Positions 9,692 to 17,882 are shown, counted from the first letter of the stretch. The stretch: 64,000 bases of DNA from an uncultured bacterium (GCA_963825135.1 CAWGRW010000009.1:544001-608000), one strand, 5' to 3'. A program made the numbers and translations. The notes: a model not told the origin generated them from the letters alone.

Positions 9692-9720
9692 TTGAAACAA
9701 AAAACAAATTGCACTAAACT
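9692..9720 (+). promoter_or_regulatory. Putative sigma70 promoter for the riboswitch-led operon
   Basis: TTGAAA (9692-9697), 17 nt, TAAACT (9715-9720). Predicted start about 9727, just upstream of the aptamer. Confidence 0.65.
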
Positions 9721-9739
9721 TGCAAAAAGGGTTAGTATC

Positions 9740-9832
9740 CTTCCGAAATGGCAAACTATCCGAAAGGGTAGGACGCAAAGCCTCAAGCCTAAGGACGCCT
9801 GAGCGGTGTCTAGGGCGGTTGGGTTGCCGAAG
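9740..9832 (+). ncRNA. Cyclic di-GMP-I (GEMM-I) riboswitch aptamer
   Basis: GGCAAAC, then stem CTATCC-GAAA-GGGTAG (GNRA tetraloop), then GACGCAAAGCC, receptor half CCTAAG, hairpin GACGCC/GGTGTC, TAGG, and GGTTGCCGAAG. P1 is CTTC(9740-43)/GAAG(9829-32). Layout follows the V. cholerae Vc2 aptamer. Confidence 0.93.
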
Positions 9833-9950
9833 AACGTATACTTGCAATAATTCTAATAATCAAGGATTATTATGGTAGAGCTATAAACAAATATATTAAC
9901 AATGTTAAAGAACAATGCTAAAATAATTTTTTGAGAGGGGGATCCGAATA

Positions 9951-12707
9951 ATGGGGATAATAATCCGAGAATCGAAAGAACGGAGAAGGCATGAAAGAAT
10001 CCCTGTGGATTTTCATGTCTATTCGAAAAATTCCGGCAAGAAGATCGGGCAGGCGAAAGACCTCTCGTATAAAGGGCTATTCATACAAACTGAAGACGAG
10101 TTCAAGCCGGGAACTAAGCTCCTTCTCGAGTGTGATTTATCAGGCACGTTTCCCATCAAGGCCTACTGTGAAGTAAAGAGGCACGAAACAAACGGTACCG
10201 GCGAGCACGGTATCGGGGTCGAATTCATAAACATATACGATTCGGACAGGACGAAGTTAGAGAGCTATATCGAGAAAAGTAAAAATACCCTCAACTCCGA
10301 CGACTATTATCTATCCGACTTCGCGGACATCCCGGACGAGGACCTCTTTAAAAAGGCCGAAGTATTCTGGCAATACGGACTGGACATGGCGTCGAAGGGA
10401 TACATCAGATACAGAAGACCCCTGGCGTCGCCCTCGGCGCACAGAGTGATCATCGACGACGACTTCACCGGAAAGAAAAAAGAGATGATCATGATGGGCA
10501 GCAACAACTACCTCGGGCTCACATCCCATCCGAGGGTTATGAAAATAGCCAAAGAAAATATCGATAAATACGGCGCAGGCGCAGGCTCGGTGCCGCTCCT
10601 GGCCGGGTCGTTCGACATACACAGGCGGCTGGAGATGAAGCTGGCCGAGCTCAAGGGCGCAGAGGACGCGATAATCTTTCCGAGCGGATACGTTACGAAC
10701 CTCGGATGCATACAGGCGCTTGTTAAAAATGAGGACCTCGCGGTCATAGACAGGCTCGCCCACGCGAGCATCATCGACGGCTGTATGCTGTCCTCAGGCA
10801 CATTCAGGACATTCAAGCACTCGGACGTCCGGAGCCTCGAAAACGTATTAAAAAGAAATAGAGACAATTTTAAAGGAAGGATAGTTATAGTCGACGGCGT
10901 ATACAGCATGGACGGGGACATAGCCCCTCTCAGGCAGATCGCCGAGACGGCCCACAGGTACGGCGCCAAGGTTATGGTGGACGAGGCTCACGCCACAGGT
11001 GTCATTGGGGACAGGGGCAAGGGAACTCCCAGCCATTTTAAAATGAAGCCCGGAGAGATAGATATCGTTATGGGCACGCTGAGCAAATCCCTGGGCGGCG
11101 TCGGCGGATTCATAGCTTCGACGAAAGAAGTAGTGAGCTACCTGAGGTACTACACCAGGTCCTTTTTCTTCTCGTCCAATTTCCCCCCTTCCGTCGCGGC
11201 CTCGGTACTGGCCGCGATCGAGGTAATGGAAACGGATAAATCCATCCACGAAAACCTCTGGAAGAATATCAAGCACATGAAGGAAAACCTGAAATCAATG
11301 GGATTCAACACGGGGCAGACCGAGTCGGCGATCATCCCCGTTATGACCGGCGACGAGCTCACCCAGAAAAAGATGAGCAGGAGGTTCCATGAAGAGGGGA
11401 TATACGTAAACGCGATACCTCATCCCGCCGTGCCGAAAGGACATGAAAGGTTCAGGTTCAGCCTAATGGCCACACACACGCGCGAAGACATCGACAAGAC
11501 GCTCGAGGTTGTTGAAAAACTGGGAAGGGAATTCGGTATCATCGACAGACCGGTCTCTCTCTACGTGTCTGAAAATGACAAATACACCGTGAGAGAAATA
11601 TCTACCAAAGAGGAGATCGAAAAATCTGTCAGGTTCTCGTGGGGAGTGTACAAGGATTATCCCGCGTGGGTGCCTTACTTCCTGATAAAAGATCAGGTTA
11701 AGCTCGTTTCGAACGACTACTTCTACTTCAGAAAGGTCTACGGGAAGCGGTTCGTTGTGGAGGAAAAAGGAGAGATAGCGGGAACCGTAAGTGCGTTTAT
11801 CGACAATTACTACAACCGTTATCACGATACCAACGCAGGGTTCCTCGGGTTTTTCGAGGCCCTCCCTGAAAAACAGGAAGCTGTGGGACTGATGCTGAAG
11901 AAGGCGGAAGATTTCCTCACCGGCAACGGATGTACCGAGCTGCAAGGACCCGTGAACGGGATATTCGGTCTCTTCGGCGGCGGCCTGCTCTCGAGCAACT
12001 ACGGGAAGATACCGTCCTTCCTCCAGGTATACACCCAGCCCTACTACCACGACTATTTCACAAACGCGGGGTTCGGGCCGGTGAAAAAGCTCCTGCACTA
12101 CACTATAGACCTTAAATCGCCCGAGAACGTGGAAGCGATAATGAAATACTCTCGGGAATCGGCGCTGCAGGATATAAAGATAAGGCGAATGAACAAATCC
12201 GACTGGGAGAACGAGGTGAGGAGCGTGGTCAGGATTTTCAACAATTCCCTCGCTCAGCTCTGGGGCAATGTCCCGTTTGACGCCGACGAGTTCATAGAGA
12301 TCGCGGATGAATTCAAGAGCCTTATAGTTCCCGAATACTGGCTAATCGCGGAATCGGCCGGCGAAGCTATAGGCTTCATAGGGGGATTCCCCCAGTACGC
12401 TTCCGTATTCAGGGGCTTAAACGGGGAGATCAAGCCCCACAAGCTGGTGACGCTGCCCCTCCGGCTAAGAGGCATCAAGGAAGGCGTGTTAATGATCATG
12501 GGCCTCATGGACGAATTTAAGGGAAGGAGAATCGGCACCCTCCTCCTCAGCAGAGTCTGCGAGGCGATGATCGGGAACGGGTACGAAAAGGTAGCCGGCA
12601 CATGGGTTCTGGAAGATAACCTGGGCTCGCGGCGTATCGTGGAGAACCTGGGCGGCAAGGTAGATCTATACTGGGATATGTATTCGAAAACACCTGTTAC
12701 AGGCTGA
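9951..12707 (+). CDS. Fusion: PilZ + PLP-dependent alpha-oxoamine synthase (serine palmitoyltransferase-like) + YghO/bacterial ceramide synthase-like GNAT
   Basis: PilZ: RRHER (RxxxR, aa12-16) and DLSYKG (aa37-42). AOS: GSNNYLGL, AHASIIDG, DGVYSMDGD, DEAH, GTLSKS (K379), PAVP..ERFRFS. C-terminal part: VYKDYPAWVP, GFLGFFEA, LQGPVN, PYYHDYF, WVLEDN. Confidence 0.85.
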   Translation: MGIIIRESKERRRHERIPVDFHVYSKNSGKKIGQAKDLSYKGLFIQTEDEFKPGTKLLLECDLSGTFPIKAYCEVKRHETNGTGEHGIGVEFINIYDSDRTKLESYIEKSKNTLNSDDYYLSDFADIPDEDLFKKAEVFWQYGLDMASKGYIRYRRPLASPSAHRVIIDDDFTGKKKEMIMMGSNNYLGLTSHPRVMKIAKENIDKYGAGAGSVPLLAGSFDIHRRLEMKLAELKGAEDAIIFPSGYVTNLGCIQALVKNEDLAVIDRLAHASIIDGCMLSSGTFRTFKHSDVRSLENVLKRNRDNFKGRIVIVDGVYSMDGDIAPLRQIAETAHRYGAKVMVDEAHATGVIGDRGKGTPSHFKMKPGEIDIVMGTLSKSLGGVGGFIASTKEVVSYLRYYTRSFFFSSNFPPSVAASVLAAIEVMETDKSIHENLWKNIKHMKENLKSMGFNTGQTESAIIPVMTGDELTQKKMSRRFHEEGIYVNAIPHPAVPKGHERFRFSLMATHTREDIDKTLEVVEKLGREFGIIDRPVSLYVSENDKYTVREISTKEEIEKSVRFSWGVYKDYPAWVPYFLIKDQVKLVSNDYFYFRKVYGKRFVVEEKGEIAGTVSAFIDNYYNRYHDTNAGFLGFFEALPEKQEAVGLMLKKAEDFLTGNGCTELQGPVNGIFGLFGGGLLSSNYGKIPSFLQVYTQPYYHDYFTNAGFGPVKKLLHYTIDLKSPENVEAIMKYSRESALQDIKIRRMNKSDWENEVRSVVRIFNNSLAQLWGNVPFDADEFIEIADEFKSLIVPEYWLIAESAGEAIGFIGGFPQYASVFRGLNGEIKPHKLVTLPLRLRGIKEGVLMIMGLMDEFKGRRIGTLLLSRVCEAMIGNGYEKVAGTWVLEDNLGSRRIVENLGGKVDLYWDMYSKTPVTG

Positions 12708-17170: not shown

Positions 17171-17186
17171 TAAAGCGCGACGGAAT

Positions 17187-17549
17187 ATGGAAGACGCTCC
17201 TTCTTTTTACTGCAAAATATTCGTAAACGAAAACGAGATATATTCGGGAGACTTCGGGGAAGTCCCCGAGAAGTTCAGGACCGGCATGGTCAGGGACCTG
17301 TCGGAATGGGCGGGATCGCTCGGCAAGAGGGGCCTGAACGAGCTCATTTATTCACACCTCGCCTGGTATGAAGAAAAGGGTCAATATTGCGAGGAGTGCG
17401 GAACGTGGAAGGCGGAAAGCGGTGTGAAAGAGTGCGGCGAGTGCGGAAAAAAGCTGAAAGAACGTTATATTTATGAGCGGGAGAAGAGGCTCGACATGAT
17501 TATCACCTGTGTGGGAATGATATCAGGAGTGCAAATTTCAGCAGCTTAG
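17187..17549 (+). CDS. Hypothetical protein with Cys4 zinc ribbon
   Basis: CEEC...CGEC; starts 16 nt after the hybrid kinase stop. Confidence 0.65.
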   Translation: MEDAPSFYCKIFVNENEIYSGDFGEVPEKFRTGMVRDLSEWAGSLGKRGLNELIYSHLAWYEEKGQYCEECGTWKAESGVKECGECGKKLKERYIYEREKRLDMIITCVGMISGVQISAA

Positions 17550-17591
17550 AACGGAAGCCTGACGACAGGCGCAATTCAATAGGGGTCGAAA

Positions 17592-17882
17592 ATGAAATTA
17601 ACAGTTAAAGGTCAGATTTTTCCCGGGGTCTGGAAGATCGCGGATAGCGTCAGGAAACTGAGAGACGACAGAAAGCCCGTTAATATAGGATCCGGGACGG
17701 TCGGATTTCCCGTCTATGAAGTGGACCTCCCGGACAATACCAGAAAAGAGGGTCTATACTTTGTGACTCCGGAGGGCACAAGACTCTACTTTAACCCTGG
17801 CGATCAGTATCAGGTCGGCTACCTGATATCCGAAACCGACAGCGACCCGCTGCGAGAAAAACATTTTAAAGGGACCGCATAA
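17592..17882 (+). CDS. Hypothetical protein (96 aa)
   Basis: AGGGG SD before ATG; fills the gap; no motif recognised. Confidence 0.6.
   Translation: MKLTVKGQIFPGVWKIADSVRKLRDDRKPVNIGSGTVGFPVYEVDLPDNTRKEGLYFVTPEGTRLYFNPGDQYQVGYLISETDSDPLREKHFKGTA

Follow-up and report, generated by a model that had tools for sequence, protein, structure and literature searches.

The CqsA/CqsS system of Vibrio and the LqsA/LqsS system of Legionella each comprise an alpha-oxoamine synthase (AOS)-family enzyme adjoining a multi-transmembrane (TM) sensor kinase, and their amino-ketone is tailored further; CqsS is a hybrid kinase with six TM segments. The Rpf/DSF system of Xanthomonas combines a signal synthase (RpfF, a crotonase-family enzyme), a membrane kinase (RpfC), and a REC-HD-GYP protein (RpfG) in one locus. 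In the ceramide pathway of Caulobacter crescentus (Spt-bCerS-CerR), Spt carries out the condensation, and bCerS then N-acylates the keto intermediate in the cytoplasm before any reduction, according to the available passages of the source (PMC11087976). Here, we analysed a 64,000-nt window (the whole stretch of DNA, with coordinates counted on its + strand) from an uncultured bacterium (GCA_963825135.1 CAWGRW010000009.1:544001-608000), the named relatives of which are Candidatus Dadabacteria metagenome-assembled genomes. The window contains a cassette that consists of a cyclic di-GMP (c-di-GMP)-I riboswitch, a PilZ-AOS enzyme with or without a fused GNAT N-acyltransferase, and two kinases (HK1 and HK2), located between aroC and a small open reading frame (ORF), orf120. 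Our overall interpretation, which we regard as an even call, is that c-di-GMP would license the synthesis of an N-acyl amino-ketone lipid or signal that is sensed by a dedicated phosphorelay. A sensor kinase encoded beside an AOS that makes a lipid or signal is of a known kind, and it is the regulatory wiring that is new.

The order of the domains in the fusion, AOS followed by acyltransferase, is the same as the order of steps in the Caulobacter pathway as far as the latter is described in those passages, and GNAT-less cassettes can carry a short-chain dehydrogenase/reductase (SDR) instead. However, the cassette AOS scored below the Spt equivalogs, the two enzymatic domains of the cassette form a single polypeptide with PilZ, and riboswitch control and the obligatory linkage to two kinases are features of the cassette and not of the Caulobacter locus in the portions of the source available (PMC11087976). 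Compared with the Cqs and Lqs systems, the juxtaposition of an AOS with a multi-TM kinase is shared, whereas the AOS reached only 208 bits against a cut-off of 428 on the CqsA/LqsA-type model (NF005526), HK1 has 10 TM segments, a putative periplasmic PDZ-like domain, and a GAF domain and is followed by a second, hybrid kinase, and the cassette adds a c-di-GMP riboswitch, PilZ gating, and a fused N-acyltransferase. A signal synthase, a membrane kinase, and a REC-HD-GYP gene lie in one locus, as in Rpf/DSF, in four related loci (L054, L062, L064, and L065), but the synthase is an AOS, the REC-HD-GYP gene is about 75 kb away in the window's own genome, and c-di-GMP would also be an input. The XrtA/PEP-CTERM histidine kinase PrsK (TIGR02916) shares multiple TM segments, GAF, and HisKA/HATPase domains with HK1 and gave a partial profile match over HK1 residues 323-835; unlike PrsK, HK1 scored 113 bits against a cut-off of 300 and has a putative N-terminal PDZ-like domain, and no exosortase context was present in the loci examined. 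In the literature, as far as its sources were available in part, we found no account of a PilZ-AOS enzyme or of the cassette and no link between c-di-GMP and the synthesis of amino-ketone or ceramide-type lipids; the original prediction, made from the sequence alone, likewise knew of no described system with such an architecture. The main-text passages available of a paper on Black Sea sphingolipids (PMC11334938) contain no mention of Dadabacteria or of such fusions.

Control by c-di-GMP is supported at two levels of the predicted circuit, by the riboswitch and by a PilZ domain with both binding motifs. A cmscan search of the window returned only one family at the gathering level, the c-di-GMP-I (GEMM-I) riboswitch aptamer at 9740..9831 (+), which matched RF01051 with 78.2 bits (vs. 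35) over the full length of the model (1-87), as the original prediction had proposed. The same aptamer was found 5' of the fusion gene at all eight loci of one set of relatives (L001-L004 and L006-L009), with scores of 77-82.5 bits. RNAalifold analysis of the leaders of 12 relatives showed that 8 of 34 predicted pairs covary on both sides with pairing kept, and the covarying pairs that were checked (columns 67-80, 68-79, 70-77, 71-76, and 105-125) belong to the aptamer helices. The unpaired G that opens the GGCAAAC motif was invariant (12/12 aligned sequences); we take it to be the G20 position, at which cGAMP sensors have an A instead. In related bacteria, members of the GEMM-I class can respond to cGAMP (3'3'-cGAMP, GEMM-Ib), and the ligand of the present aptamer is read as c-di-GMP, a prediction made because this G is invariant and the regulated gene carries PilZ. 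The orthologous aptamer of a metagenome relative (L086:3984-4079) was best matched by the c-di-GMP-I-GGC variant (RF03167, 66.6 bits) over RF01051.

The aptamer is followed by a 119-nt leader (9832..9950, +) with the Shine-Dalgarno sequence GAGAGGGGGA (about 9934-9943), and then by the gene for the 918-aa fusion enzyme (9951..12707, +). The N-terminal PilZ domain (residues 10-108; 9978..10274, +) matched PF07238 with 54.7 bits (cut-off, 22.5; E 1.4e-14) and contains RRHER at residue 12 and DLSYKG at residue 37, about 25 residues apart, which correspond to RxxxR and D/NxSxxG, the c-di-GMP-binding motifs of PilZ. Both motifs, spaced by 10-45 residues, were present in 73 of 90 related proteins (the first 90 of 121), and the 17 misses comprised 8 proteins that have no PilZ by Pfam annotation and 9 that have PilZ with one or both motifs missing. 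In the genome that contains the window, 10 c-di-GMP-I riboswitches and 5 GGDEF proteins are accompanied by just 2 PilZ proteins. Since the fusion is one of the two PilZ proteins in a genome with ten such riboswitches, it is likely a main protein effector of c-di-GMP in this uncultured phylum.

The promoter claimed by the original prediction is a candidate only. The promoter-like region (9692..9738, +), to which a function is assigned only putatively, contains TTGAAA-17-TAAACT according to a motif scan and an alternative TTGCAC-18-TAGTAT according to inspection by eye, and a block at about 9709-9722 is invariant or nearly so among the 12 aligned relatives. The match corresponds to only 9/12 of the consensus, and the 10 sites found were not above the chance expectation from shuffled sequences (8.1 ± 3.2). 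Across genera, the sequence of the leader is nearly identical (TTGCAAT..., TTAAAG, and AAAAT blocks). An expression platform suggested by a single-sequence fold, in which the 5' flank pairs with the Shine-Dalgarno sequence, was rejected because this flank is probably at or before the transcript start. The nine further c-di-GMP-I riboswitches of the 3.1-Mb genome (G000 C9) are located outside the window at 1873254, 1235487, 2332743, 1674752, 943281, 2164259, 1446862, 441125, and 2471061. The genes behind them encode a CBM96 protein, a subtilase, PilM, an SLT-SPOR transglycosylase, a GSDH-type dehydrogenase, a 1390-aa TPR protein, and family-less ORFs, one of which is a 919-aa ORF 5' of a pyruvate dehydrogenase E1 gene.

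The pyridoxal phosphate (PLP)-dependent AOS domain occupies residues 178-520 (10482..11510, +) and matched Aminotran_1_2 (PF00155) with 193 bits (E 7.9e-57). It aligned end to end with the solved structures of ThAOS (7poa), Sphingobacterium SPT (3a2b/8guh), and E. coli KBL (1fc4), including the TLSKS block with the PLP lysine and the DEAHA motif, which indicates a complete alpha-oxoamine synthase; the top match in the PDB was ThAOS, a BioF/KBL enzyme. Among NCBIfam models, the scores were highest for the BioF/Kbl family (TIGR01825; 409 vs. a cut-off of 535), KBL (NF005394; 395 vs. 460), and BioF (TIGR00858; 390 vs. 426), followed by the three Spt models (NF047600, NF047599, and NF047603; 379 vs. 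640, 345 vs. 500, and 291 vs. 670, respectively). The label "sphingolipid", which had been attached to the locus by the original prediction, is thus unproven, as the AOS falls under every Spt cut-off and is closer to BioF/KBL. A separate BioF paralogue in the genome of the window passed the equivalog (445 vs. 426), and every genome has its own BioF. Because no equivalog was passed and the genome already has a separate, passing BioF, the AOS is classified, by its profile scores, as an extra clade outside the assigned families. The carboxylate loop (IPHPAVPKG) was also considered for a substrate call and discarded as non-discriminating, since it resembles those of both KBL and Sphingobacterium SPT.

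The C-terminal part of the fusion (residues 534-918; 11550..12704, +) was assigned to a tandem-repeat GNAT N-acyltransferase domain from an AF2 model and Foldseek. Pfam detected Acetyltransf_1 at residues 791-901 (E 2.4e-10), and no NCBIfam model matched this part. The model of the C-terminal 385 residues, built with an alignment of 19 of 26 relatives after near-duplicates, one partial sequence, and one sequence with stop codons were left out, had a pLDDT of 80 and a pTM of 0.82, and its top Foldseek matches were tandem GNATs, namely MAB_4324 (7q3a; 6e-15), a glucosamine N-acetyltransferase, MshD (1ozp), and a clavulanate tandem GNAT, with 5kf1 and 2wpw also among the matched PDB entries. A profile search against 1.84 billion representatives retrieved 6112 proteins with E <= 1e-3, among them 745 with E <= 1e-30; the majority are stand-alone proteins of 365-395 aa that aligned end to end and whose clusters are named only "GNAT family N-acetyltransferase"; a word-based search for such stand-alone relatives returned 16 matches, all of them fragments of the same fusion. 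The best 150 matches included PilZ-less AOS-GNAT fusions (P0143, P0163, and P0259, the last being collinear with residues 180-914 of the fusion at 31% identity) and PilZ-GNAT fusions (P0157, P0169, and P0179), so that the pairing of this GNAT family with AOS and with PilZ is recurrent. The domain matches, the stop of the fusion at 12707, and the start of the next ORF at 12715 bear out both the PilZ-AOS-GNAT fusion and the 7-nt gap to the next gene that had been described from the sequence.

That next gene encodes the 857-aa sensor kinase HK1 (12715..15288, +), which consists of TM1, a candidate periplasmic PDZ-like domain (about 12847-13089), nine further TM segments (TM2-10, about 13114-13920), GAF (14017-14442), and a HisKA-HATPase kinase core (14557-15222). 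GAF, HisKA, and HATPase_c were identified by Pfam and the 10 TM segments from hydropathy, in accordance with the PDZ/multi-TM/GAF kinase of the original prediction; for PDZ, only a weak fold match was obtained, Pfam being blank over residues 1-428 even at E 10. A 95-residue loop follows TM1, and the periplasmic stretch extends over about residues 45-125. In an AF2 model computed from 24 of 27 sequences (three close relatives left out; pLDDT 78.6), this domain is beta-rich, and Foldseek placed it nearest to the DegS, DegP, and HtrA PDZ domains (rmsd 2-3 Å over about 90-100 columns; E about 1e-3). The corresponding domain of a distant relative matched a SpoIVB peptidase model at 2e-7. The modelled fold weakly suggests that the periplasmic domain of HK1 is PDZ-like. 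The longest ORF for HK2 begins at TTG 15173, but with the ATG at 15254, which is preceded by "aggagag", the overlap with HK1 is the claimed 35 nt and the start falls at the first REC domain. From this ATG, HK2 is a 638-aa hybrid kinase (15254..17170, +) with REC, a weak PAS, HisKA, HATPase, and a second REC.

The linkage of these genes was examined in 120 genomes, in which an HK1-type sensor was defined by at least 34% identity; all of the genomes are kin in one phylum, and the counts are not independent trials. The PilZ-AOS type was present in 37/120 genomes (36 by match and G070, in which the fusion is cut by a contig end), the GNAT part in 27/120, and the HK1-type sensor in 39/120, with three more genomes having only paralogues of 25-28% identity or fragments. 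HK1 was found in every one of the 37 genomes with PilZ-AOS, and about 80 genomes had neither. HK1 occurred without PilZ-AOS in two genomes, G014 (at a contig edge) and G015 (L063, with riboswitch, methyltransferase, HK1, and HK2), and G023 had a divergent PilZ-AOS-like gene (36%) at a contig edge and no HK1 match. Joint flips of presence and absence were observed in families f1 (genera g3 and g4 without both), f2, f3, f4, and f8; in f2, g15 had neither gene, and within g9, G004 had both, whereas G002 and G003 had neither. This pattern requires several losses or gains of both genes at once. In genus g10 (L062, L064, and L065), the cassette occupies a different contig or a different position from aroC and orf96, which indicates that it moved as a unit. 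The synthase and the two kinases are thus co-conserved and lost or relocated together, and the locus passed the co-conservation check that the original prediction had named among its refuting conditions.

The upstream flank of the cassette is aroC (8536-9612), and downstream lie orf120 (17187..17549, +), with a weak Zn-ribbon match (Zn_ribbon_3, 20 bits, below the cut-off), orf96 (17592..17882, +), which belongs to no family, and a cation-efflux (CDF) gene (17960-18910), all as the original prediction had placed them. Its inclusion of the two small ORFs in the operon did not hold. We rejected orf120 and orf96 as members, because orf120 directly follows aroC, with orf96 adjoining, where the cassette is missing (L072, L073, and L074) and because orf96 was found in 97/120 genomes, including cassette-less lineages (9/10 of g3 and 36/36 of g26). 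Both are genes of the aroC neighbourhood that are not specific to the cassette. In several genomes of family f2, a DUF255 thioredoxin-domain protein of about 700 aa is inserted between HK2 (or aroC) and orf120 (L052:11304-13400, L053, L061, L063, and L076). An SDR at 7502-8485 scored just under the cut-off for HpnA, a hopanoid-associated sugar epimerase (350 vs. 368), and adjoins aroC across the phylum, whether the cassette is present or not. It was considered as a CerR or L-threonine 3-dehydrogenase (TDH) and rejected, as it is HpnA-like and kept with aroC in cassette-less genomes.

The genes around the synthase and the kinases vary between lineages. In GNAT-less cassettes, the position between PilZ-AOS and HK1 is occupied by a SAM methyltransferase (L061 and L090), a Zn-dehydrogenase whose best, weak NCBIfam match is TDH (L062; 126 bits vs. 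380), or a 3-beta-HSD-family reductase (L064, L067, and L099) that came closest to OleD, the reductase of long-chain 2-alkyl-3-oxoalkanoates (227-236 bits, below the cut-off), or by no gene (L065, L068, L069, and L070). AOS and GNAT are separate genes in L056 (G013), with a signal-peptide protein of about 610 aa between them; a protein of this kind is encoded directly 5' of PilZ-AOS in 11 loci with GNAT-less cassettes (L062, L064, L065, L067-L070, L098, L099, L101, and L121). It belongs to no Pfam family, has a coiled-coil-like N-terminus, and has paralogues at G000 C9:262387-263886 and 1063854-1065410; in the protein atlas it is nearest to the TIGR04551 family and alginate-export-like outer-membrane proteins, which we treat as a lead only. 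A REC-HD-GYP gene lies directly 5' on the same strand in the four Rpf-like loci named above, with a GGDEF gene beyond it in L065. Its orthologue in the window's genome (G000 C9:477748-478812; 57-61% identical) is situated between gatB and carA with no informative neighbours, and the second HD-GYP protein of this genome has HAMP and not REC. The position of the riboswitch also varies. It was found in 7/9 loci of the set L051-L058 and L063 (5' of PilZ-AOS in L051, L052, and L055-L058, and before the methyltransferase and HK1 in L063), in 3/9 loci of the set L061-L070 without L063 (between PilZ-AOS and the next gene towards HK1 in L061, L062, and L068), and in 4/12 loci of the metagenome set (5' of the fusion in L086, L088, and L089, and between PilZ-AOS and the methyltransferase in L090). 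In several lineages, therefore, the riboswitch is placed such that it would govern the kinase genes themselves, with PilZ retained on the synthase.

Using the HK1 sensor alignment, a metagenome scan returned 80 loci. Sensor loci of at least 33% identity share the aroC/orf120/orf96 neighbourhood, and most of them have PilZ-AOS where upstream DNA is present. Of the more distant sensors (54 loci, 26-38% identity), 43 share their locus with a different gene, which is usually directly adjacent on either side and in either orientation and resembles the apolipoprotein N-acyltransferase gene Lnt. The 11 distant loci without it are contigs of about 5 kb or less. Among 15 chosen loci with long flanks, Pfam LNT_N and CN_hydrolase were detected in 14 (43 of 103 ORFs scanned), and the four Lnt-like genes tested passed the Lnt equivalog TIGR00546 (284-320 bits vs. 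133). The outputs of the Lnt-linked sensors vary, with matches to kinases, PP2C-type phosphatases, and cyclase-like proteins. To our knowledge, the sensor-Lnt pairing has not been described. It cuts both ways: the sensor module is tied to enzymes making N-acylated lipids, and at the same time it is shown not to be confined to AOS products. Lnt-linked sensor loci (L106-L160, e.g., L132:5277-9316) often have a family-less ORF of 150-180 aa and very large surface-protein genes 5' of the sensor, and in L132 a group II intron domain match (RF00029, 48.5 bits) is present at 9324-9396 (-), just 3' of the sensor gene.

From these observations, the following mechanism may be proposed. c-di-GMP would act twice, on the mRNA leader via the riboswitch, with the sign of this control left open, and on the enzyme via the N-terminal PilZ domain. 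The AOS would condense an amino acid with an acyl thioester to yield an alpha-amino ketone, and the fused tandem GNAT would N-acylate the amine in the cytoplasm, giving a keto-ceramide-like N-acyl amino-ketone. Judging from the domains, we hold this chemistry, AOS followed by N-acylation, to be fairly probable. HK1 would perceive the product, or the envelope state that the product creates, and pass phosphate to HK2, and the relay would probably end on the REC-HD-GYP c-di-GMP phosphodiesterase, closing a loop on c-di-GMP. Sensing of the product by HK1, suggested by the genetic linkage, is put forward tentatively, at somewhat less than even likelihood, because the wider sensor family adjoins Lnt and HK1 orthologues occur without an adjoining synthase. 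By analogy, a constant synthase and receptor with swappable tailoring genes, a possible outer-membrane channel, and an HD-GYP protein resemble Cqs/Lqs and Rpf/DSF more than a pathway for bulk lipid. The most far-reaching form of the proposal is an undescribed c-di-GMP-centred circuit of cell-cell or envelope lipids with a lineage-tailored product and a reset through HK1, HK2, and REC-HD-GYP, that is, an AOS-based analogue of Rpf/DSF, in which the Lnt-side sensors would be widespread receptors of N-acylated lipids or lipoprotein acylation; we consider it doubtful in this full extent.

Several findings weigh against a dedicated, product-sensing circuit under c-di-GMP control. As all genomes are kin, the counts overstate independence. 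No Spt, KBL, BioF, or CqsA model of NCBIfam was passed by the AOS, which is about equidistant from BioF, KBL, and Spt. About one in four cassette-bearing genomes has no GNAT in its cassette, implying that N-acylation is not essential to the circuit. HK1 orthologues without an adjoining synthase were found at six loci (L063 and L066 in genomes; L095, L100, L103, and L104 in metagenomes), the distant sensors share their locus with the Lnt-like gene and not with an AOS in 43/54 cases, and the putative periplasmic PDZ domain suggests a peptide or envelope cue. The linkage to REC-HD-GYP was seen in two genera only. With respect to the riboswitch, none was detected at the gathering score in 12 relatives' loci (L054, L064, L065, L067, L069, L070, L093, L098, L099, L101, L105, and L121) or in any of 12 Lnt-linked sensor loci (0/12). 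In the motif scan and the RNAalifold analysis of the 12 relatives, the leader 3' of the aptamer had neither an intrinsic terminator nor a covarying helix. It also contains, at 9896-9924, a promoter-like TTAACA-17-TAAAAT (10/12, with TG; sigma-70 pattern), and if this promoter is in use, some transcripts would be without the aptamer.

Part of this evidence would be accommodated by an envelope-lipid explanation, in which the fusion supplies the membrane with a structural lipid, either sphingolipid-like or an N-acyl aminolipid, when c-di-GMP is high (sessile state), and HK1/HK2, as members of a family generally connected with lipid N-acylation, serve as an envelope-state sensor with homeostatic feedback, not as the receptor of a diffusible signal. 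The PDZ-like domain of HK1, which is of the DegS/DegP type in its fold matches, and the bona fide Lnt genes beside the distant sensors keep this explanation alive. It is also in line with the OleD-like best matches of the reductases in GNAT-less variants, with the surface or envelope genes behind other riboswitches (pilM, the SLT-SPOR transglycosylase, the subtilase, and the CBM96 protein), and with the Spt-then-bCerS order reported in the Caulobacter passages, which is that of the fusion. However, a change of tailoring enzyme from one close genus to another (acyltransferase, reductase, methyltransferase, or none), with the kinases kept, is not what one would predict for a structural pathway, and about two thirds of the phylum can do without the cassette. 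Moreover, the AOS misses all three Spt models by a wide margin, and no cassette-specific acyl carrier protein (ACP), acyl-ACP synthetase, or CerR-like gene was found, the HpnA-like SDR at 7502 also being present in cassette-less genomes. We therefore regard the envelope-lipid explanation as possible and somewhat unlikely.

The kinases could also act upstream of the synthase or be co-regulated members of the c-di-GMP regulon, such that HK1 senses a periplasmic peptide through PDZ, the relay adjusts c-di-GMP, and the synthase is one of several outputs. We consider this unlikely, since HK1 accompanies PilZ-AOS in all 37 genomes and is relocated with it, and since the tailoring genes are sandwiched between synthase and kinase, even though the REC-HD-GYP linkage, the six loci in which HK1 has no synthase, and the riboswitches that precede the tailoring or kinase genes in L061, L062, L063, L068, and L090, which make the kinases themselves c-di-GMP targets, would fit such an arrangement. 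A role in primary metabolism, with a KBL/BioF-type AOS for glycine/threonine or biotin and a GNAT that detoxifies a reactive amino-ketone, so that the product is neither lipid nor signal, is what the top NCBIfam scores (TIGR01825, KBL, and BioF), the top PDB match, and the weakly TDH-like dehydrogenase of one variant might lead one to expect. It is nevertheless highly improbable, given that every genome has a separate BioF, which passes the equivalog in the window's genome, and that the cassette is missing from most of the phylum; furthermore, we know of no housekeeping pathway that needs a riboswitch, a PilZ domain, and two kinases.

If the proposed reading of c-di-GMP-licensed synthesis and dedicated sensing is true, c-di-GMP would be linked directly to the synthesis of amino-ketone or ceramide-type lipids, and the locus would be a rare case in which one messenger gates one enzyme twice, through its RNA and through the protein itself. 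The series of tailoring genes (acyltransferase, two kinds of ketoreductase, methyltransferase, and none) together with a conserved receptor is what one would expect to see if a chemical signal were diversifying, and this series makes the question testable by heterologous expression. Beyond the cassette, the PDZ-TM-GAF sensors beside Lnt point to an unstudied sensory family connected with lipid N-acylation.

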